Shown in pieces: positions 1 to 9,254 of a DNA stretch of 64,000 bases. Source of the DNA: Gammaproteobacteria bacterium. Its GTDB lineage: Bacteria > Pseudomonadota > Gammaproteobacteria > Ga0077536. The position numbers were made by a program, and so were the translations under genes. Every line of letters begins with the position of its first letter. The stretch's first letter is position 1. The notes beneath the pieces are model-generated. The model was given only the letters and a program-made list of their open reading frames with translations, was not told the origin of the DNA and made no database searches. Where the stretch lies: contig CAXXLL010000002.1 of the NCBI GenBank assembly GCA_963662545.2, positions 1,632,001 to 1,696,000 of the forward strand. Reading direction: 5' to 3'.

Positions 1-714
1 GGCTACTTCGCACGGCCTTACTTTGAAGCGCTCGACACCGCCGGCGGCCATTTCATCGTGCGCGCGGGTCAGGGCATCAATCCGCTGATCCTGTGCGCTC
101 GTCAGACCCATGGGCGGCGGGTTAAACGCTTTGAGAATCAACGCTTGAAAGCGGTGGCATCGACGTTAAAGCGTTTCGACTGCCTCGACATGGTCGTGCA
201 ATTCGACGGCGTGCAGGAACCTTGGACCTGTCGTTTAGTCGTGCACCCCAACCTCAAAGGCACAGCGCCTCGTTATCTCATCACCAATCTCGACGCCGCC
301 ACCTTTACCCCCGAGCATGTCAGCGACGCGTATCGCTTGCGCTGGCAGGTAGAACTGCTCTTCAAAGAGTGGAAGTCTTACGCCAATCTACACGCCTTTG
401 ATACCGCCAACCCGCACATCGCCGAAGGGCTTATCTGGGCCGCACTATGCGCCGCAACGCTGCAGCGCTATTGCGCTCATGTCACCGAGCGCTGGTTGAA
501 CGTCGCCATCTCGACTCATACCGCGGCCAAGTGCATTCATCACGTGCTCGGTCCCATTCTCCATACGCTTATCCATCGGCCCCGCGCTTTACACCGACCG
601 CTCGAACGCGCGTTGCGCTATTTGGCCAGCAACGCTCAGCGCGCAAAACCTGGCCGCGATTGCATTTCGGGACGACTCAAACTCGGCCTCCACCATGTTC
701 ATGCGGCCGCTTAA
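1..714 (+). CDS. IS4-family DDE transposase (5'-partial)
   Basis: Frame open from base 1; motifs ...HFIVRA, YLITNL and YRLRWQVELLFKEWKS. Confidence 0.85.
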   Translation, partial: GYFARPYFEALDTAGGHFIVRAGQGINPLILCARQTHGRRVKRFENQRLKAVASTLKRFDCLDMVVQFDGVQEPWTCRLVVHPNLKGTAPRYLITNLDAATFTPEHVSDAYRLRWQVELLFKEWKSYANLHAFDTANPHIAEGLIWAALCAATLQRYCAHVTERWLNVAISTHTAAKCIHHVLGPILHTLIHRPRALHRPLERALRYLASNAQRAKPGRDCISGRLKLGLHHVHAAA

Positions 715-727
715 GAACTAACCTATG
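1..727 (+). mobile_element. IS4-family insertion sequence, right part (left end outside window)
   Basis: Transposase C-terminus with the IS4 Y-(2)-R-(3)-E-(6)-K signature (YRLRWQVELLFKEWK). The stop codon lies inside a terminal motif CTTAAGAACTAACCTATG (710-727), which reads CATAGG... on the minus strand. Confidence 0.85.
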
Positions 728-767
728 AGTAACGATTAGGTCTGCAATGGGCTCGTAAGCGGTCGTC
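728..767. repeat. Composite palindromic repeat module, copy 1 (unit B 740-764; left part cut by IS4)
   Basis: GTAACGATTAGGTCTGCAATGGGCTCGTAAGCGGTCGTC aligns with GTAAGGATTACGTCCGCAATCCTCTCGAAAGCGGTCGTC at 8989-9027. Confidence 0.8.
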
Positions 768-809
768 CGATAGTTCGGGGGCGCGAGCAAGCGTTATGAG
801 CCGTTCTAA

Positions 810-1097
810 GTCCGGCCGCTTGAGTTCGACAACAAGGCCGTCTACCGCACGCTCGGCATCGTCGTATTGTGCGGTTCCAATACGCGCACCGGGCAGGGCG
901 AACTCGTTTTCGTCAGGGCGATCGGCGGCACCTACAATTTTTACATCGTGCAGAAAATTTGGCGGACGCCGGAGTTCGATATATCTACGGAGTTGCCGGT
1001 GCCCCTCGCCGAACGCCAGACCTGGCTCGAATACCTCACGTCCATTGATGTCTGCGATCTGGGTCTAGGGAACTGTCCGGAATCGGTGAAGGAATAA
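810..1097 (+). pseudogene. 5'-truncated hypothetical gene fragment
   Basis: Protein-like frame (VRPLEFDNKAVYRTLGIVVLCGSNTRTGQGE...CDLGLGNCPESVKE*) begins straight after an in-frame TAA, with no RBS or convincing start. Confidence 0.45.
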
Positions 1098-1122
1098 GCG
1101 GCATTGGGGCTAGCCCGCCCCG

Positions 1123-2214
1123 TTACGCGACCGCTTTACGTTCGCCGAATCCGGTTTGAAATCGTGGCGCCACCTCGTTGGCGAACATCGTCATCGACCG
1201 CTCAATTTTTTCGAACGGCAAAGCGTACAGATCGCAATGCGCGACGAAATGGTTGTAACCCATCTCGATGTGGCGTTCGATTTTCTCGGCCACTGTGTCC
1301 GGTGAACCGACAAACAAGAGATCCAACACCTGTTCCATAACCTCCGGTTTCCCCAGGCTTTTCAGCATATTGAACAGCGCCATCCAGGATTCATAGCCCT
1401 TGATCTTGTCGAAGCGCGTGCTATCCACGGTGTAGTGTCTTTGTTGCAATTGAAAAAAACGGGTCATGGTTTCGCGTGCAATCGCGTAGGCCTCTGCGTC
1501 GGTCTCGGCAATGACCGTCGGCACCCAATTAATGCGGTCGGCGCTCGTATCGCCGCCAATTTCCGCGGTGACCTTCGCCCATTCCTTGATGTTTGCCTCC
1601 TGAACCTCCGGGTCGGGATAACCCGCATTCAACACCGGCAGACCCATTTCGGCGTATTTGCGGGCGCTGGTCGGATTCGCATACGGCCCGTAAAACGTGA
1701 TGTTTTCCGTCCTTGCCCGCGGTCGCAGTTCAACCTCCCGGGTGACGCTCACGAACTCGCCCTCATAGGTAAAGCTGCCCCCGGCCAACGCTTTTCGCAG
1801 GATCGCCAGCGCATCATTGAAGCGCCCCTGGGCGTCCGGCATGGGCACGCCGTAGGCCTCATGTTCCATCGGCGCCGTCCCGCGACCCACGCCCATATAG
1901 AGATGCCCATCGGTTTGGTTCGACAACATCGCGATCTCGGCCGCGAGGCGCAACGGCTGATACCATGGCAGCACTAAGACGCAGGTGCCGAGACCCAGTT
2001 CCGGGCATTGCGAAGCGATCTGGGAGAGCGTGATCATCGGGCTCGGTGTTGCATAGTAGTCGGTGAAATGATGCTCGGCCACCCAGACCGCCTCATAGCC
2101 CAGATCCCGCCCCAGCCGAGCGATCTTCATGCGTGTTTGGTAGATTGTGTGGTCGTCCGAACCGAGTGCATCCGTCGGGTTTGCGGAAAAATCAAAATGA
2201 ATGTCCTGTGTCAC
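1123..2214 (-). CDS. LLM-class (luciferase-like) flavin-dependent oxidoreductase
   Basis: VWVAEHHF, PLRLAAEIAML and GVGRG motifs; GGAGGA RBS upstream of the GTG start. Confidence 0.9.
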   Translation of the reverse strand: MTQDIHFDFSANPTDALGSDDHTIYQTRMKIARLGRDLGYEAVWVAEHHFTDYYATPSPMITLSQIASQCPELGLGTCVLVLPWYQPLRLAAEIAMLSNQTDGHLYMGVGRGTAPMEHEAYGVPMPDAQGRFNDALAILRKALAGGSFTYEGEFVSVTREVELRPRARTENITFYGPYANPTSARKYAEMGLPVLNAGYPDPEVQEANIKEWAKVTAEIGGDTSADRINWVPTVIAETDAEAYAIARETMTRFFQLQQRHYTVDSTRFDKIKGYESWMALFNMLKSLGKPEVMEQVLDLLFVGSPDTVAEKIERHIEMGYNHFVAHCDLYALPFEKIERSMTMFANEVAPRFQTGFGERKAVA

Positions 2215-2290
2215 TGACGATCCTCCAATAAACCAAGCCTAAGATAATGGCGCATTTTCACATGTAACGGCGGCTTATGACACCCGTGAT

Positions 2291-3312
2291 GTCCGTTATG
2301 GGTGTGCGCCGTGCAAAGGCGGCGTTCTTCAGTGGGTGCAAGTCCCACCCGGCAACTGTCGCTCCAGCCGGAAGCAATCGGAGCAGTCATGGAGGTAACA
2401 AGATGGCTGAAGCCTTCGGTGTAGAGGGTCACTAGGTGACTTGGCGAGTGTGCAGGCCGTAAGGTGAGTGAACGCTGAGCAAGCCTCGAAAAGGACGATG
2501 CACGTGCCGACCGGTCAACCCCTATCGGGAAGGCTGAAAGGGCTGGGGAAGCGAGCGATGAGCGCACCCAGTCGGCGTGCCGGGGTAGTGGCGATGGCAT
2601 GTACACAGAGGAGAACGCGCGCAACACGGGAAGCCCGATGGCGTGGTCGGTCGTGGCGATCAACCGGAGACCGGTGACGGTCAGAGAGGGCGCTATGGGG
2701 TGGCGGAGAGGCCCGTAGTACTGAGGAAGCCGGGTAATGCTGGTGGAGGGAAGGGGCCTTAGTTCAAGACGGGCACTGAAAGCGGCAAAGCACAGGAGAT
2801 TGGGGCAACCCTAGGCAACTCCGGTAAGGTGCGGGCGCGGTGGAAGGCGTCACATGTTGAAGCGAAGGAAGAACCCGGATTGCGATCTGGGAAGCGAATG
2901 CCCACCCAAGTGGTGGCATTGGCGGTTGTGTGCAGAACGCTCGGTTCGTGCACGTCGGGATACACGGCCCGGTGTGGTGGGTCGGGTGAACTGCGGATGA
3001 CCTTTCGTGTGCCAAGGCATGAGTCTTGTCCGAGAGCCGGATGCGGTAGTTCCGCCTGTCCGGTTCGATGAGGAGGATGTGGAAACGGAGTGATGGTCCG
3101 GCTATTGAGGCACCGCCAGACGAAAGGGGCGGCAACAGATTGGCTGAACCTTAGACCACCGCGCCACATCCTTACTCTACCGATAGCCGCCTGATCGCGG
3201 CAGTGCAGCACCGCTAAAGTTTACGTCTGCAATGCGCTTGTAAGCGGTCGTCGAGTTGCTTCAAGCATCGAGTCGAGAGGGTACGACGACTTTCGACCAA
3301 CCAGAAGCGGTC
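2291..3312. repeat. Composite repeat module, copy 2 (unit A 2291-2303 + 3181-3191 split by the intron; unit B 3225-3249; unit C 3285-3312)
   Basis: Removing the intron restores the 24-bp unit GTCCGTTATGGGT|CGATAGCCGCC, followed by the GCAGTGCAGCA spacer and GTCTGCAATGCGCTTGTAAGCGGTC. Confidence 0.8.
2304..3180 (+). ncRNA. ORF-less (RT-deleted) group II intron, 877 nt
   Basis: 5' end GTGCG; domain V GAGCCGGATGCGG...CCGCCTGTCCGGTTC (3034-3066) with the AGC triad; long domain VI ending ...CCTTACTCTAC. Only relics of the start and end of the RT ORF remain in domain IV. Confidence 0.9.
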
Positions 3313-3423
3313 CTTCTCGGCCCGAACTCCGGCGTTTAATAACGCGGAAATAGGCGGTGCGCGCCGCGCCAGTGGCTTACGGGTGTACAATGCACGAGGA
3401 CTAACCGCGGAGATGCTAAGACC

Positions 3424-3894
3424 ATGAGCGCCAAACCCATCACCACGCCGCCCGGCTGTGACCTGTACGACCATGAGATCGATTGGCAGCCCTTCGCCGG
3501 CATCGAAAACCTCGAACTCACACTGTGTGATCTCGACGAAGAACGCCACGTAGTCGATCTGATCGTGCGCTTCGCGCCTAACAAGACCGTGACTATGCAT
3601 AATCACCTGGCGCAGACCAACATGCTCATCATCCAGGGGGAACTGCGCATGTACGAACCAGACGGCAGCATCCGCGAGGCGCGACCGGCCGGACGCTATT
3701 ACCGCGGTCGCACCGACGACACACACAGCGAGGGCGGCGGCCCGGACGGCGCGGTGGTCTTCTACAGCATGCGCTGCGACGGTGCGCACGACGTACTTGA
3801 AATTATGGACGAAGCTGCCAACGTGCAGGCGACGTTGACCATGGATGACGTTCGGGCGGCGTGGGACGCGCAGCAGCAAGCCCGTTCGGCGTGA
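3424..3894 (+). CDS. Cupin-domain protein (ChrR-like)
   Basis: Cupin metal motifs MHNHLAQT...QGEL and THSEGG; GGAG RBS. Confidence 0.8.
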   Translation: MSAKPITTPPGCDLYDHEIDWQPFAGIENLELTLCDLDEERHVVDLIVRFAPNKTVTMHNHLAQTNMLIIQGELRMYEPDGSIREARPAGRYYRGRTDDTHSEGGGPDGAVVFYSMRCDGAHDVLEIMDEAANVQATLTMDDVRAAWDAQQQARSA

Positions 3895-3967
3895 CGAGCG
3901 TGCGTATAGTCACTGTTCAATCAATTTCAGCGTCTCCTTAGAAGAAAACTGGAAACCAGGGTCGTGG

Positions 3968-4272
3968 GACCGCTCAGGGTCGTGAGCCGCCCACTCACGG
4001 CAGTGCAGTACCGCTCCAAATCACGTCTGCAATACCCTCAATAGCGGTCGCCCACTAGCGTTCGGCGGAACGTTAGCCGAGCAGGTCAGCTCACGGCCGA
4101 GGCTGTGTGAAAACTCAAAAACGGGACGACGAAAATAAAAAATTCTCCACCAACATAGTAGTTAAGGCCGTTGAAAAGGGATCGACATTTCAATTAGATC
4201 CAATTTCGAGTGTAGTTCCCCCACTTTTGAAAAACCAAAATAGTTTTCACACAGCCTCGGCCATGATCGGTC
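3968..4272. repeat. Composite repeat module, copy 3 (A 3968-3991, B 4025-4049, C 4085-4098 + 4263-4272 split by a MITE)
   Basis: Colinear with the copy at 8953-9254 over about 120 bp, including the spacer TAGCGTTCGGCGGAAC. Confidence 0.85.
4099..4258. mobile_element. MITE 1, IS1182-like ends, 160 bp
   Basis: Perfect 17-bp TIR GAGGCTGTGTGAAAACT / AGTTTTCACACAGCCTC; GGCC duplicated at 4095-4098 and 4259-4262; AT-rich non-coding interior. Confidence 0.88.
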
Positions 4273-4863
4273 ATAAACATCTTCATACTTTGCAAAAGAA
4301 AACCCCGCGCTAAGGTGGAGCTTCGTATTCTGATAGCGGTCCGGCATTCCTTCCGCCCGAGCACCCCCGCAAGCGAAGTTGCCGACCCTCAACGACTGAG
4401 GCTCGATGTCACCCCTAAACTCAACCACGGATGCCAGGCCTCTTAAGCCAACGGTCACAGCCTCGCGCGCCCACACCCCTGTAGCACCAGCCAACGCCGA
4501 ACATCGACCACCGAACAACGCTAAACTCGGCTCATCACCGCCTCAGAACTACTCAATTGGTTCTCGTTGACGAGACGCGCGACCGACGCATGGTCGAAAA
4601 ATGGCCGTTATTCGCTCTAGACTCCGATCTGCAATCTCCCCACAATCGTGATCGAGTATGTCACGTGCTCCAAATGGTAATTGTTACAAAGGGGGTCATA
4701 AGTAACCGATCATTGCCACAGACTTTGGTGCGCTACGGAGTACGTTTTTCCAATGAAGTGATGTTCGGATACTTTGTTTCGCCTTAGTAACTAGTGTGTA
4801 GTGCCCATCCAGGCTACATATTCGGATCTTCGTTTAACATAGCGCGGACCGGTTAACTGGGGG

Positions 4864-5517
4864 ATGACGTTGGCGAAGCTCGAGTTCTTCTTCGATTTTG
4901 CCAGCCCGTGGACCTATATGGCCTACTGCCGTGTCGAATCGATCGTCGCGGAGACCGGGTCGGATCTCGAATGGCGGCCGTTCGACATGAGCGACGTGTT
5001 CTAGAAGGCCAACCCCGGTGTTGCGACGATGCGCGCAAACCCCGTGCCTGCCAAAATCACGCACTATTACAAGGATATGCAGGATTGGGCGCGACGCCTT
5101 GGCATTACGATCGGCCGGCCGCCGGTATACGGCGGCGCTGCGCAACAATTACGCTGCGTTAAAGCGCTTAGCGGCGCATTGATCGCGCTGGAGCGAGATT
5201 GCATATCCGATTACTCACGTGCGATGTTCGAAGCGTACTGGCACGACTTGCGTGATCTTTCCGATGACGATGTATTGACCAATATCGTCTCGGATCTGGG
5301 CTTTGATGCGTCTGAATTTCTACAACGAGTCAACTCATCCGAGTTAAAAAACGAAATCGTCGCAAACGCCGAAGAGCTCATAGCCCGAGGCGGCTTCGGT
5401 TCGCCGACCTTTTTCGTCGACGGTGATGATATGTATTTCGGCAATGATCGGTTGGACTTCATACGTGAAGCACTATCGCATCGTCCAGATATCGCCGCGG
5501 GTAGCGGGCAGGGTTAA
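4864..5517 (+). pseudogene. 2-hydroxychromene-2-carboxylate isomerase / DsbA-family (GST-kappa-like) gene with an internal stop
   Basis: KLEFFFDFASPWTY at the N-terminus and GGFGSPTFFV...FGNDRL at the C-terminus are in one frame, interrupted by TAG at 5002-5004. Confidence 0.85.
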
Positions 5518-5522
5518 CGAGC

Positions 5523-6275
5523 TTGGAAGGCCAGGTCGCAATTGTAACCGGCGCTGGCAGCGGCATCGGCGCGGCCATCGTACGTGAATTCGTAACGTTG
5601 GGGGCTGCGGTGCTGATCGTGGACATCGATGGTGACCATGCTGCGAAGGTAGCGAAAGAACTGACAGACACCGGCGGGCACGCCGCGAGTTTAACGGTTG
5701 ACGTCACCGATCAAGCACAGGTCGACACCATCTCCAGCGCCGCGATCGAGCAATTCGGTGCCATTCATATCCTCGTGAACTGTGCCGGCATCGGTGAAAA
5801 CACGACGATCGCTGAGCACAGTATCGAACAATTCGAACGCATCATCGCGGTCAACTTGACTGGTAGCTACCGCTGTATCCGTGAGGTCATGGGCGAGATG
5901 ATGGCGCGCAAGTACGGCCGGATCATCAATGTGTCATCGGTCGCGGGGCTGCGCGGATGCGCGGGCCGTATCGGTTACGGCACGTCGAAGGCTGGCGTCA
6001 TCGGCTTGACCAAACATGCTGCGGTGGAGTTGGCGCCCTACAACATCACTGTCAACGCCATCGCGCCGGGTCCTATCGACACACCGTTGACCCAGGCGAT
6101 CCACCCACCAGACACGCGTGAGCAGTTCAACCGGGTTATCCCGCTGCACCGCTATGGTACGCTGGACGAAGTCGCGTTCAGCGTGGCCTTTTTGGCATCC
6201 GAGCGCGCGAGCTACATGACCGGACACACGCTCACCCTCGACGGCGGTTTCAGTTCGTCGGTCGCCATTTTCTGA
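5523..6275 (+). CDS. SDR-family NAD(P)-dependent oxidoreductase (FabG-like)
   Basis: TGAGSGIG, NCAG, YGTSK and NAIAPG motifs. Confidence 0.92.
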   Translation: MEGQVAIVTGAGSGIGAAIVREFVTLGAAVLIVDIDGDHAAKVAKELTDTGGHAASLTVDVTDQAQVDTISSAAIEQFGAIHILVNCAGIGENTTIAEHSIEQFERIIAVNLTGSYRCIREVMGEMMARKYGRIINVSSVAGLRGCAGRIGYGTSKAGVIGLTKHAAVELAPYNITVNAIAPGPIDTPLTQAIHPPDTREQFNRVIPLHRYGTLDEVAFSVAFLASERASYMTGHTLTLDGGFSSSVAIF

Positions 6276-6285
6276 AGGAGATCCC

Positions 6286-7353
6286 ATGAGATTTAGCATC
6301 ATTATCGTCCCGCAAGTTCGAGACGGGGAGCCTGAAGTATTCGAACAGATCGTTGAACAGATCGAATATGCCGAAGAGCTTGGCTACGACACCGTTTGGC
6401 TGACCGAACACCATTTCAGCCCCTACGGGCGGGCGGCCGTGCCGAGTATTGCGGCCCATGCCATCGCGCGGACCAAAAAAATTCGGATCAGCACGGCCGT
6501 TGTGGTTCTACCGTTTCATCACCCCGTGCGGGTCGCCGAAGAGTGGGCAACCCTCGATCACATGTCCAAGGGCCGTGTAGACGTCGGTCTCGGTCGGGGT
6601 AACCAGCCCGCGGAGTTCAAAGGTTTCGGCATTCCCATGGACGAGGCCGAACAGCGCTTCGCCGAATCCTTGGCGATCATCAAGCGCGCTTGGACCGAAG
6701 AGCGGTTCTCCTACGCTGGGCAATTCTGGCAGATCGAAGATCTGTCGGTACTACCCAAACCCTTTACGAAACCCCATCCGCCGTTATGGCAGGCCGCTTT
6801 GAGCGACTATACCGTCCAGAAGGTCATCGACCGCGACATCAACGGTCTGATCGGACCTTATCTGTGTCCGTACGAAACCTTGAAAACGAATTATTTCGAC
6901 GTGTGGCACGGACGTCTCCGCGAAGCCGGTCGAACTGATCTGGCCTTAGCACACAATGAGTTCGTCTATGTCGGCGAGAGTGACGCACAAGTCAAAGCCG
7001 ACATCGAGGAAAACATCATGTGGTATATCCGCACGGCCGCGAAGATTTGGGGCGAGCGCGATCGAAGCAAAGTCGCGAGTCAGTACGCGAATTACAACGA
7101 CATTCTCGAATACCTCGACGTCGTCCCATTCAGCGAGGTCTATAACGAATTGGGTATGTTCGGAACGCCCGACGCGGTAGCGGAAAAAGTCCGTTGGATG
7201 CGCGACGAAGGCGGTGTCGAGCAACTCATTAACTTCACGTGGTTTGGCGGCATCAGTCAGGAAAAGGCACTGCGCAACATGGAGCTGTTTGCGCACGAAG
7301 TGATGCCGCGGTTTAAGGAGCTGGTAGAAGTCGCCGGCGCGTTCGGGGCTTAA
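6286..7353 (+). CDS. LLM-class flavin-dependent oxidoreductase
   Basis: WLTEHHF, HPVRVAEEWATLD and GLGRG motifs; GAAGGAG RBS. Confidence 0.92.
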   Translation: MRFSIIIVPQVRDGEPEVFEQIVEQIEYAEELGYDTVWLTEHHFSPYGRAAVPSIAAHAIARTKKIRISTAVVVLPFHHPVRVAEEWATLDHMSKGRVDVGLGRGNQPAEFKGFGIPMDEAEQRFAESLAIIKRAWTEERFSYAGQFWQIEDLSVLPKPFTKPHPPLWQAALSDYTVQKVIDRDINGLIGPYLCPYETLKTNYFDVWHGRLREAGRTDLALAHNEFVYVGESDAQVKADIEENIMWYIRTAAKIWGERDRSKVASQYANYNDILEYLDVVPFSEVYNELGMFGTPDAVAEKVRWMRDEGGVEQLINFTWFGGISQEKALRNMELFAHEVMPRFKELVEVAGAFGA

Positions 7354-7394
7354 TTAGAGACCGTCGCGAAATTTACAGCACGGAGAAGCGCTCG

Positions 7395-8450
7395 ATGGGT
7401 GAGGAAACATTGAATAGAGAAATGATCGACGTATTTCGCGAAGAGTTGCGGCTTTGCGGTGTAGGTCCCGGCGAGAAGGTCGCGGTGCTGTCCGAAGGCG
7501 ATATCTTGCAAGATTACTCAGAGGCGTTTTTGCACGGTGCTGAAGAACTCGGCGCGGACGCCGTGCGCGTCAACGTCGCCGCGTCAGATACCAATGCCGG
7601 TGCGGAAGCGCGCCTCGCAGATTTGGGCACGAGTGCCTTGTCGACCGACCGTGAGTCGTTGGAGACGCTCAAAGGGTCTGACCTGGTCGTCGATCTGATG
7701 CTGCTGTTGTTTTCAAAAGAGCAACTCGAGATCCAGGCCTCGGGTACCCGCATCTTGCTCGCAGTCGAGCCTTTTGAATCCTTGAAACGTCTGTTCCCGA
7801 CGGACGCCCAGCGTAAGCGCGTGGAGTCCGGCGCGCGTCGCATGTTCGCAGCCGAGACCCTGCGGTTTACCAATGGCGTTGGCACCGACGTCCGCTATGA
7901 ACTGTTAAAGGGGCCGCCAACCAAATGCGTCATCACCGAATACGGTTTCACCGATATTCCCGGTCGCTGGGACCACTGGCCAAGCGGCTTTCTCGCCTCG
8001 GCTGGGACTAAGACGGGCGTCGAAGGACGGGTGGTGATGGATGTCGATGACATGATCTTGCCGTGGAAGCAGCTACTGCGCGCTCCCATCGATTTAACCA
8101 TTCGCGACGGCGTGATCACCGATGTCGCGGGAGGCGATGACGCGAAACAGTTTCGTGAGTACGTCGAAAGTTTTGAAGACCCGCGCGCCTATGGGATTTC
8201 ACACATTGGCTGGGGACTGAACGAAAACGCGAATTGGGATGTGAACGTGCCCGGCATCTGTCAGGACGGACGCGCCTACTACGGCAACGTGCTTTTTTCG
8301 ATCGGCCCGAATATCGAATTCGGCGGTGACAACGATACCGCCTGTCACCTGGATCTACCGATGAAGAATTGTTCGCTGTGGCTGGATGATGATCTGATCG
8401 TCGAAAACGGTCGCGTCATTCCCGACGATATGCGGGCGCCGGGGCGTTAG
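7395..8450 (+). CDS. nicX: 2,5-dihydroxypyridine 5,6-dioxygenase-like protein (NicX family, peptidase M29-like fold)
   Basis: Segments GTRILLAVEP, TEYG...PGRWDHWPSGFL, YGISHIGWGL and CHLD match my recollection of NicX, including the His/His/Asp iron ligands. Exact substrate is uncertain. Confidence 0.75.
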   Translation: MGEETLNREMIDVFREELRLCGVGPGEKVAVLSEGDILQDYSEAFLHGAEELGADAVRVNVAASDTNAGAEARLADLGTSALSTDRESLETLKGSDLVVDLMLLLFSKEQLEIQASGTRILLAVEPFESLKRLFPTDAQRKRVESGARRMFAAETLRFTNGVGTDVRYELLKGPPTKCVITEYGFTDIPGRWDHWPSGFLASAGTKTGVEGRVVMDVDDMILPWKQLLRAPIDLTIRDGVITDVAGGDDAKQFREYVESFEDPRAYGISHIGWGLNENANWDVNVPGICQDGRAYYGNVLFSIGPNIEFGGDNDTACHLDLPMKNCSLWLDDDLIVENGRVIPDDMRAPGR

Positions 8451-8462
8451 ACCAGGCAACGC

Positions 8463-8563
8463 ATGTCCCACACCGAAATCTGCCGCATGGATGCGGCCAC
8501 ACTCGCCGACAACATTCGTTCCAAGGCACTCTCGCCTACCGAGGTCATCGAGGCTGTCCTGCC
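8463..8563 (+). pseudogene. Amidase-family gene, N-terminal ~33 codons only
   Basis: MSHTEICRMDAATLADNIRSKALSPTEVIEAVL is a typical amidase/GatA N-terminus; it switches abruptly into transposase sequence. Confidence 0.75.
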
Positions 8564-8935
8564 CTCGCGGCACTCATTCCCAAACTCCGCGTCAACCTCA
8601 TCCGCTACCACGGCGTGTTCACCCCGAACAGTCCACACCGCGCAGCGGACACCCCCGCCCGTCGCGGCCGCAAAGCGCCAGGTACCAAGGGTTCCGAAAC
8701 ACCCGTCGAGCGCCGCGCCGCCATGAGCTGGGCGCAACGCCTCAAGCGCGTGTTCAACATCGACATTGAAACCTGCGAGGTATGTGGCGGTGCGGTGAAG
8801 GTCATCGCCTGCATCGAAGATCCCGCTGTCATCCAACGCATCCTCGACCATCTCGACCACCGCTCTGCACAGCCGACGCTTGTCTGCGTCCTTCCTTCAC
8901 TACCGCTCCGGTCGGCCGAAGCAAACGCACGATAA
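8564..8935 (+). pseudogene. IS91-family (Y2 HUH, rolling-circle) transposase, C-terminal remnant
   Basis: LAALIPKLRVNLIRYHGVFTPNS and MSWAQRLKRVFNIDIETCEVCGGAVKVIACIEDPAVIQRILDHL; the catalytic N-terminal part is absent. Confidence 0.85.
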
Positions 8936-8952
8936 TGCATCGCAACAAGTCC

Positions 8953-9254
8953 GGTCGTTCCCGGTCTAATCGCGGCAGTGCAACACTGGTAAGGATTACG
9001 TCCGCAATCCTCTCGAAAGCGGTCGTCCAGTAGCGTTCGGCGGAACATTAGCGGAGCACGTCGGCTCACGGCCGAGGCTGTGTCAAAAGTCGAAAAATGG
9101 AGCCCGCTGCGAAAATTTTCCCCAATGCACGACTTAGATTGTTATGCACGATTGATTAAGGGAACACACCGCCTAAGGTAGGCAAATCGAGCTAAACTTC
9201 TCCCACTTTCAAAATTCAAAAATACTTTTGACACAGCCTCGGCCAGAAGCCGAC
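8953..9254. repeat. Composite repeat module, copy 4 (half A 8953-8966, B 9000-9024, C 9060-9073 + 9245-9254 split by a MITE)
   Basis: Colinear with copy 3; the restored unit C is GTCGGCTCACGGCCAGAAGCCGAC. Confidence 0.85.
9074..9240. mobile_element. MITE 2, IS1182-like ends, 167 bp
   Basis: Perfect 17-bp TIR GAGGCTGTGTCAAAAGT / ACTTTTGACACAGCCTC; GGCC target duplication. Confidence 0.88.

Follow-up and report, generated by a model that had tools for sequence, protein, structure and literature searches.

The window, that is, the whole stretch of 64,000 nt analysed here (contig CAXXLL010000002.1 of assembly GCA_963662545.2, positions 1,632,001 to 1,696,000), belongs to the genome of a sponge-associated gammaproteobacterium and contains a group II intron of 877 nt on its + strand, at 2304-3180. 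The intron RNA starts with GUGCG at 2304 and ends with ..CUAC at 3180, in agreement with the GUGYG/AY rule, and the same ends are found in seven aligned relatives, with GCGCG in one relative. The Rfam model RF02003 (group-II-D1D4-4) covers 2330-2467 with 100.8 bits (E = 2.6e-21, gathering score 49), which is the sole RNA match at gathering level across the window. Under relaxed thresholds, the model of domains V and VI (RF00029) matched 3032-3180 with 36.1 bits; this score is under the gathering score of 40 because domain VI holds an insert of ~85 nt. The parts of the intron and of its exon edges, including the exon-binding sites (EBS) and the intron-binding sites (IBS), are the following:

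2288-2303, + strand: 5' exon homing motif GATGTCCGTTATGGGT, with IBS2 GTCC at 2291-2294 and IBS1 GGGT at 2300-2303; left edge of an array repeat
2330-2467, + strand: domain I core (Rfam group-II-D1D4-4); the whole of domain I extends roughly over 2304-2626
2493-2496, + strand: EBS2 GGAC in the unpaired stretch AAAGGACGAUG, covarying with exon positions -13 to -10
2516-2523, + strand: EBS1 loop CAACCCCU, a hairpin in the consensus fold; ACCCC at 2518-2522 pairs with exon GGGT
2627-2790 (approximate limits), + strand: domains II and III, read off the dot-bracket of the consensus fold
2800-2878, + strand: relic of the ltrA start, ~27 codons, containing ASHVEAKEEPG and out of frame past a 2-nt insertion
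2879-3005, + strand: 127 nt filling domain IV, for which relatives show no significant match
3008-3022, + strand: relic of the ltrA end (..AKA, TGA at 3020-3022), aligned to the end of the relatives' ltrA
3034-3066, + strand: domain V, 33 nt, with AGC triad 3035-3037, CU bulge 3056-3057 and pentaloop UAGUU 3047-3051
3070-3177, + strand: enlarged domain VI, ~108 nt, with the bulged branch A at 3174, 7 nt before the 3' end
3181-3320, + strand: 3' exon, formed by the right part of the array repeat (CGATAGCCGCCTGATCGCGGCAG...; nhmmer)

The alignment to seven relatives showed the AGC triad and the 2-nt bulge of domain V, as well as the bulged A of domain VI. The long domain VI is common to all eight aligned lineage members and is thus a lineage trait. 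Its basal stem has changed in a compensatory manner, reading CGGGAUGUGG/CCACAUCUCG in relatives and GAGGAUGUGG/CCACAUCCUU in the window copy. In the consensus fold of eight lineage members (RNAalifold), the window copy retains 132 of the 138 pairs and the relatives which bear an open reading frame (ORF) retain 124-137. There is no reverse transcriptase (RT) ORF within the intron: the longest frame of the + strand has 80 aa and no Pfam family, and the mechanical frames of the - strand (150, 150, and 123 aa) show no credible family. Sequence, Rfam and alignment agree with the initial annotation, which had described an ORF-less group II intron with GTGCG...AC ends and domains V and VI, and had proposed the comparison with covariance models reported above.

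In the search for relatives, 80 records of a plasmid collection matched the intron, none of them covering 80% of its length. Intron positions 1-575 are ~74-78% identical, and positions 703-877 are 78-82% identical, to introns of 1.93-2.02 kb located on plasmids of Paraburkholderia, Microvirga, Sinorhizobium, Buttiauxella, Xenorhabdus, and a Planctomyces strain (the Planctomyces plasmid with 70% over positions 1-467). For positions 576-702, no DNA match was found among the relatives. The ltrA genes of three scanned relatives encode proteins of 441-464 aa, with RVT_1 and GIIM and without a nuclease domain.

Relics of the RT ORF in domain IV, which had been suspected from the letters, are confirmed for both ends of the gene, since the start and stop regions of ltrA align to the relatives. 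In detail, the TTG start annotated for ltrA of P. fungorum (intron position 494) aligns with the TTG at 2800 of the window, and blastx of 2800-2878 against the N-termini of the relatives gave weak matches (E from 0.097 to 5). The ..AKA* end of the relatives' ltrA has its counterpart in the stop region ..GCCAAGGCATGA at 3011-3022, and 3008-3022 aligns with CCG TGG GCG AAG GCA TGA (..PWAKA*) of the Buttiauxella and Planctomyces genes. A relic of the RT core in 2879-3005 was rejected, as its sole blastx match was insignificant (E = 0.79).

Judged by its sequence, the window intron is a deletion derivative of a widespread lineage encoding an endonuclease-less RT/maturase. A separate ORF-less derivative of 725 nt, with breakpoints 520/708, is located on a Bradyrhizobium plasmid, and of the 19 metagenome copies whose contig includes both ends, 16 have 1984-2026 nt and three have 728, 840, and 885 nt. 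The loss of the ORF recurs in the lineage, because these independent ORF-less derivatives have differing breakpoints. In the genomes of 40 relatives of the host, just pieces of 32-63 nt of the intron were found, in three of them, and the exact 29-nt EBS region gave no match in the JGI metagenomes.

The EBS1 which the initial annotation had placed in the loop at 2516-2523 is upheld by the covariation of loop and exon among the relatives. ACCC stands opposite GGGT in the window copy, in its twin on contig C3 (see below) and in four plasmid relatives, GACAUA stands opposite TATGTC in the Planctomyces plasmid, and AAAUU opposite AATTT in the Buttiauxella plasmid; thus, three loop types covary with three exon types. 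The EBS2-IBS2 pairing, which is expected for IIB-type rather than IIC introns, is also present. GGAC is opposite GTCC in the window, Bradyrhizobium, and Microvirga copies, and GGUC is opposite GACC in the Sinorhizobium copy, with the exceptions of P. fungorum (one mismatch), two relatives shifted by 1 nt, and one unclear case. In its architecture, the lineage is IIB-type with EBS1 and EBS2, an endonuclease-less RT/maturase, and an unusually long domain VI.

The metagenomes were scanned with a pattern which fixed EBS2 as GGAC and EBS1 as ACCC; more than 120 contigs matched and 80 were retrieved. Under this pattern, the 48 readable 5' exons are all distinct and have the consensus AATGTCCGCTTYGGGT over positions -16 to -1, with GGGT in 43/48 and, at -13 to -10, GTCC in 22, GACC in eight, GTCT in five, and GTCG in four. 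The conservation at -16 to -14 and at -9 to -7 is not accounted for by RNA pairing, and fits the description in PMC4615759 of endonuclease-less intron-encoded proteins (IEPs) which read distal bases of the 5' exon. The 3' exons of the relatives are conserved at +1 alone (C in 21/24); on the plasmids of Paraburkholderia, Bradyrhizobium, Microvirga, and Sinorhizobium and on the 48 metagenome contigs they are unrelated and do not contain the array repeat. In soil the lineage is widespread, and it is marked by its enlarged domain VI and by a homing site that is both long and highly specific.

In the host genome, the intron adjoins an array repeat of ~125-140 nt, with 115 nhmmer matches (108 near-full) in 19 clusters. 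The left edge of this repeat, in the 64 copies with a free left side, has the profile gatG.CCgctt.GGGT, followed by CGTCAGCgGCCt.aTCGCGGCAGtGCAGCAC...ATTACGTCTGCAATgC.CTCgtaAGCGGTCGTC... The centre of a repeat unit, where the intron had previously been placed, is not its position: the site is at the 5' junction, where ~16 conserved nt precede it and ~125 nt follow. The related claim that splicing restores a 24-bp unit exactly holds only in part. A normal member of the repeat family is restored, but the ligated junction of 12+12 nt is not repeated exactly in the window or the genome, where the nearest copy has three mismatches.

The genome assembly has three contigs and is 96.85% complete (C2 and C3 are contig labels). 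According to blastn, it contains three copies of the intron, two full and one 5'-truncated. The window copy is located at C2:1634304-1635180. The second full copy, at C3:2554800-2555676, shows one mismatch in 877, at position 652, and the truncated copy at C3:14622-15128 represents intron positions 370-877. All three continue into C-G and the array repeat, with the insertion point GGGT^C, so that the site-specific insertion initially proposed applies to 3/3 genomic copies. The full copies are preceded by ..ATGGGT and ..TAGGGT, and their other flanks differ. The shared insertion point together with the different flanks indicates separate insertions. Upstream of the truncated copy, ..GATGACCGCT is retained, which shows that a deletion removed ~6 exon bases along with intron positions 1-369.

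The protein that such copies depend on was searched for in the whole assembly. Neither RVT_1 nor GIIM was found in the genome, and tblastn with the IEPs of three relatives gave nothing under E = 0.13; at its two weak matches (E = 0.13 and 0.44), no intron RNA motif is present. The RT-encoding relative for which the initial annotation had proposed a genome search was thus found by none of the three methods. Its idea that the intron depends on a protein acting in trans is supported, but gains no partner in this assembly. As for free target sites, GGGT/C is present in 48/64 free junctions and GTCC-N5-GGGT/C, like the occupied window site, in 12/64. With no RT/maturase found and 12 matching junctions left unoccupied, the copies have most likely become stranded and are, as far as their sequences tell, at present immobile.

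The feature is very probably a non-autonomous member of a cosmopolitan group II lineage, deprived of its ORF by a deletion, which homed into a repeat junction and whose helper was lost. The intron RNA would have base-paired with DNA of the form GTCC-N5-GGGT^C through EBS2 GGAC (2493-2496) and EBS1 ACCCC (2518-2522), and would have been reverse-spliced into it, and an RT supplied in trans would then have copied the RNA into DNA. As the homing site coincides in this genome with the junction core of a repeat specific to the genus, the intron had many landing sites, at least three of which were taken. The helper RT would later have gone from the assembled genome, leaving the copies in intergenic DNA, where they may or may not still splice. 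The intron's identity and limits, the deletion of its ORF, the EBS/IBS pairing, the location of the copies and the lack of any RT in the assembly are direct observations, from which we infer both retrohoming with a lost helper and present immobility.

Some points weigh against this reading. A helper RT could be encoded by the 3% of the genome that the assembly misses, by a plasmid which was not assembled, or by other strains. In both full copies, the EBS1-IBS1 pairing is of just 4 bp plus a mismatch, and the domain V loop of the window copy is without the GNRA-like G and A seen in most relatives. For the ribozyme class, the traits given in PMC3753933 and PMC4615759 decide nothing beyond excluding the class D motif. 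The window stretch is present in sponge metagenome runs, and RNA evidence comes from contigs of three metatranscriptome runs (X14-X16), where the four joints listed do not include 2303>3181. The unspliced 5' site is bridged by contigs of X15 (1762-2495, with no differences) and X14 (2147-2495), and the unspliced 3' site by a contig of X15 (3154-3262). Contigs drop rare forms and the libraries may hold DNA, so that splicing is neither shown nor excluded by these data.

The same runs contain an intron variant with 387 nt replacing 2772-3013, and related introns which depart at 2491-2494 and have other EBS2/EBS1 loops. These are an indication that several lineage members exist in that sponge community. 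They also agree with an intron that is still mobile and spliced, and is served by a helper RT/maturase which the population retains on a plasmid, in unassembled DNA or in another strain. Such an intron would match the youth of the copies, with one difference in 877, and the incompleteness of the genome would leave some room for the helper. On the other hand, three methods detected no RT in three large contigs, the twelve matching junctions are unoccupied, and there is no ORF-bearing form among the joints of one DNA-type run. Continued mobility is therefore considered rather unlikely.

A different possibility is that the ribozyme is dead, its splicing being blocked by the change in the domain V loop and by the shortness of the EBS1 pairing. 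The initial annotation had warned that the loop may impair catalysis. A GNRA tetraloop is indeed missing from domain V, but loops of 5 nt are found across the lineage. The seven plasmid relatives have GAGAU (four), UAGAA (two), and GAAAU (one), whereas the 25 of the 80 metagenome loci in which the search pattern caught domain V have GAGAU (13), GAAAU (seven), UAGCU (two), GAGAG (two), and AAAAU (one). UAGUU of the window copy is accordingly a minority form, set against GAGAU/GAAAU in 20/25 metagenome and 5/7 plasmid relatives. The RNA contigs show unspliced junctions only, and an intergenic site exerts no selection for splicing. However, one UAGCU copy of the metagenomes has an open frame of 447 aa, and the UAGAA loop belongs to two plasmid copies with intact ltrA, so that the loop alone is not a mark of a dead ribozyme and the earlier warning is weakened. 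The high number of retained pairs, the intact AGC triad, bulge and branch A, and the compensatory substitutions in the domain VI stem all argue for a functional structure, and the loss of catalysis seems unlikely.

The initial annotation had concluded that the intron lineage specialises in repeats of this family, in the way that group IIC-attC introns specialise in attC. In favor of this, the insertion point within the repeat is shared by 3/3 copies, and the left-edge profile is identical to the homing logo of the lineage at ~15 positions, secondary preferences included. The junctions are also shared by a second, unrelated ORF-less intron and by an insertion sequence with its miniature derivatives. 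However, homologues were found at unrelated targets: 48 metagenome relatives and four plasmid relatives (Paraburkholderia, Bradyrhizobium, Microvirga, and Sinorhizobium) follow the same 16-nt motif in unrelated DNA, their 3' exon being conserved only at its first base. In the scan of foreign loci that bear the intron, the right part of the repeat was missing, its only three matches being in two public contigs of metagenome-assembled genomes (MAGs), L018 and L019, which had been retrieved for the repeat itself; it was also not found in the plasmid collection. Five intron-bearing plasmids contain 0-2 occurrences of the 16-nt motif each, and no second free homing motif exists in 603 kb of both-strand sequence of the foreign loci.

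The distribution of the repeat points in the same direction. Out of the 41 genomes searched, the repeat is present in both congeners (13 and five matches) and in 0/38 other relatives, and the congeners carry the homing motif at their junctions yet are without the intron. Specialisation of the lineage is thus quite improbable, and we retain the lost-helper reading, in which the repeat offers a motif that the lineage also uses elsewhere.

Spread of the copies as DNA, through cassette recombination, segmental duplication or gene conversion and not through reverse splicing, would suit the large duplicated array blocks (e.g., 8.3 kb at 99.8% between C2 and C3), the shuffling of cassettes among arrays and among congeners and the lack of an RT in the genome, but it is very improbable, because the identity between copies begins at G1 and stops at C877, the match of 970 nt which comprises the intron with 19 nt of 5' and 72 nt of 3' flank has 97.9% against a single mismatch in the 877 nt of the intron, divergence is far higher in the flanking parts of the repeat than in the intron, and a moving cassette would bring one repeat along.

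The arrays in which the intron copies are located cover roughly 300 kb, and the repeat separates cassettes of 1-4 genes. Among the clusters listed, the copies inside an array are almost always co-oriented, and the arrays include one of 38 copies (C2:612996-748958) and one of 17 copies (C3:887254-930739). The array C2:1620428-1641034 has eight copies and includes window positions 1-9034. The features next to the intron in the window are:

1-728, + strand: 3' part of a DDE (IS4-type) insertion sequence (DDE_Tnp_1), with 11 further copies at 94-100% identity
1123-2214, - strand: luciferase-like monooxygenase, a cassette gene (Bac_luciferase, 157 bits)
3424-3894, + strand: cupin-domain protein, the next cassette gene (Cupin_7, 33.5 bits)
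729-815, 3181-3320, 3957-4095, and 8940-9075: array repeat copies

The intron is intergenic, between the divergent luciferase-like gene and the cupin gene, and interrupts no reading frame. A promoter and terminator scan of 2100-3450 found none. The insertion sequence at 1-728 cut off the 5' half of the preceding repeat copy, whose remnant extends from 729 to ~815.

Cassettes are exchanged between arrays. The cassette 780-2303 recurs at C2:662313-663836 with 99.7% over 1524 nt, and the identity ends exactly at GGGT, where a miniature element replaces the intron and is followed by a different repeat copy. Several further duplicates end at most 7 nt from a junction. One congener locus has 13 co-oriented copies over 47 kb, and single cassettes of this locus recur in the host genome at 92-96%, in other arrays and reordered. 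From these sequence comparisons, we read the arrays as sets of gene cassettes which are exchanged at GGGT^C or close to it. Exact-pattern matches of the repeat were also found in the two MAG contigs, one with a Pseudomonadota label (L018) and one with a Chloroflexota label (L019). The repeat and its left motif on contigs of differing phylum labels suggest horizontal spread or mis-binning. The plasmid collection gave no match to the repeat.

The reading of the repeat as a classical attC was rejected. Classical attC sites have the boxes RYYYAAC and GTTRRRY. The array repeat is without such boxes, and the genome's true attC family is different from it; neither the R''/R' boxes nor the bulged hairpin which group IIC-attC introns target were found. 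A classical integron exists in the genome, with intI (462 bits) at C2:996723 in the region C2:985242-997664 and ~ten attC sites of 110 nt (GCCTAAC...GTTAGGC) at C2:985242-995550. A second integron integrase gene is located at C3:1527239-1528180 (both genes have ~461-462 bits to TIGR02249), and self-comparison showed no repeat array next to it.

The repeat family had also been called palindromic, but its dyad symmetry is only weak. RNAalifold of 76 copies gave no consensus fold on either strand, and in 36-55 of the 64 copies the arms of the dyad G(T/A)CCGCT / AGCGG(C)C can pair, without covariation. The two arms of this dyad enclose a spacer of 10 nt. It is tentatively suggested, as a decidedly doubtful proposal, that the repeat may be the recombination site of an undescribed, non-attC cassette system, in which the left arm and half of the spacer would constitute the intron homing site.

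Xer-like recombinases were considered as candidate integrases of the arrays; their genes belong to IS91-type units situated just behind repeat ends, and they may or may not act on the repeats. These units (C2:1616781-1619284, C2:613105-615613, and four more) encode a Xer-like tyrosine recombinase of 293 aa and a Y2 transposase of 384 aa, and are inserted directly after repeat 3' ends (..GCAGT/CGGCC), within or at the head of arrays. A gene with a GIY-YIG nuclease domain (190-234 aa) is found upstream of three array heads, one of them at C2:1616068-1616640, and homologues are located ~7 kb upstream of the arrays at C2:612996 and C3:379287.

Other mobile elements use the same junctions. An insertion sequence of 1.75 kb, with DUF772 and a DDE transposase (e.g., C2:687178-688928), has inverted ends of 17 bp (CAGAGTGTGTGAAAACT), a 4-bp duplication GGTC, and miniature derivatives of ~170 bp, which in the window are placed at 4096-4261 and 9076-9250. 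This element and its derivatives adjoin 41 of the 108 repeat copies at GGGTCG, which is the spot of the intron. A second, unrelated ORF-less group II intron of ~655 nt, at C2:445294-445949 (RF01999 with 115.7 bits, RF00029 with 54.9 bits), has a canonical short domain VI and the opposite orientation to the repeat, and is placed at an array junction, directly next to the end of a different miniature element. A 3' fragment of it, 69 nt long, is located at C2:1713391-1713458.

The intron is ordinary in kind, and its helper-less state in several copies is uncommon. A genome with two ORF-less introns and no RT gene found offers a natural case for the study of splicing and of persistence after the loss of a helper. 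The array is probably a more interesting object than the intron, as its repeat draws introns, an insertion sequence, and miniature derivatives to one position. If a non-attC cassette system did exist, introns would either track recombination cores, as IIC-attC introns do, or would have helped to build the cassettes. Introns have reportedly been proposed by Leon and Roy to have helped build integron cassettes. In that case, two ORF-less introns without an RT would also point to a splicing or mobilising factor of the host or of foreign origin.

Among the known systems, RmInt1 and RmInt2 of Sinorhizobium (class D) are described in PMC4615759 with a homing site of ~20 nt, which combines IBS1, IBS2, a linker, and distal bases read by the IEP, and with tolerance of mismatches in IBS2. 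The lineage studied here is similarly endonuclease-less and has a long homing site of IBS1/IBS2 and distal 5' exon bases. On the contrary, its IBS2-IBS1 linker is of 5 nt, against the 1-2 nt described there, and the class D motif LX3AX3PXLF[V/A]HW (PMC4615759) is absent from the IEPs of three relatives, which end in ..PWAKA or ..VAWRV.

Group IIC-attC introns (S.ma.I2 and relatives) home, according to PMC4424553 and PMC3001079, to the recombination-site repeat which separates cassettes. The window intron resembles them in having as its target a cassette-separating repeat that is also hit by other mobile elements. Class C introns are described as being without EBS2 in PMC3753933, and PMC7923331 implies that IIC-attC introns have the opposite orientation to the cassettes. 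Unlike them, the window intron has an EBS2 and the same direction as the repeats, and the repeat is without R boxes.

ORF-less introns of bacteria were said in a review of 2015 (PMC4424553) to be nearly always beside related IEPs, with C.te.I1 as the sole exception known to it. As far as C.te.I1 of Clostridium tetani is described there, the window intron is similar in being ORF-less in a genome where no IEP-related gene was found. Beyond that review, C.te.I1 is known as a single intron within a gene, which splices alternatively. The window intron differs in being intergenic, in having two full copies and a fragment, and in that its splicing is a prediction. ORF-less TeI3-type introns of Thermosynechococcus elongatus are described by Mohr, Ghanem and Lambowitz (2010, PMC2882425) as multi-copy and as thought to be spliced and mobilised by the protein of a related intron. 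In both cases, the ORF was lost through internal deletion, the ribozyme was kept, and several near-identical copies are placed at cognate sites; the difference is that ORF-bearing relatives exist in T. elongatus, while no RT/maturase gene was found here.

A further resemblance in setting concerns the IIB introns UHB.I2, H.ha.F1, and H.ha.F2, reported from integron arrays or clusters of attC sites lacking integron integrases (CALINs) by Sonbol and Siam (2021, PMC7923331). As characterised in that report, they share with the window intron the IIB type, endonuclease-less IEPs, the orientation of the cassettes, the position adjoining a repeat, and the existence of truncated copies. They are placed after attC or attC-like hairpins and have or neighbor IEP genes, and the window intron belongs to a different lineage with a different target sequence.

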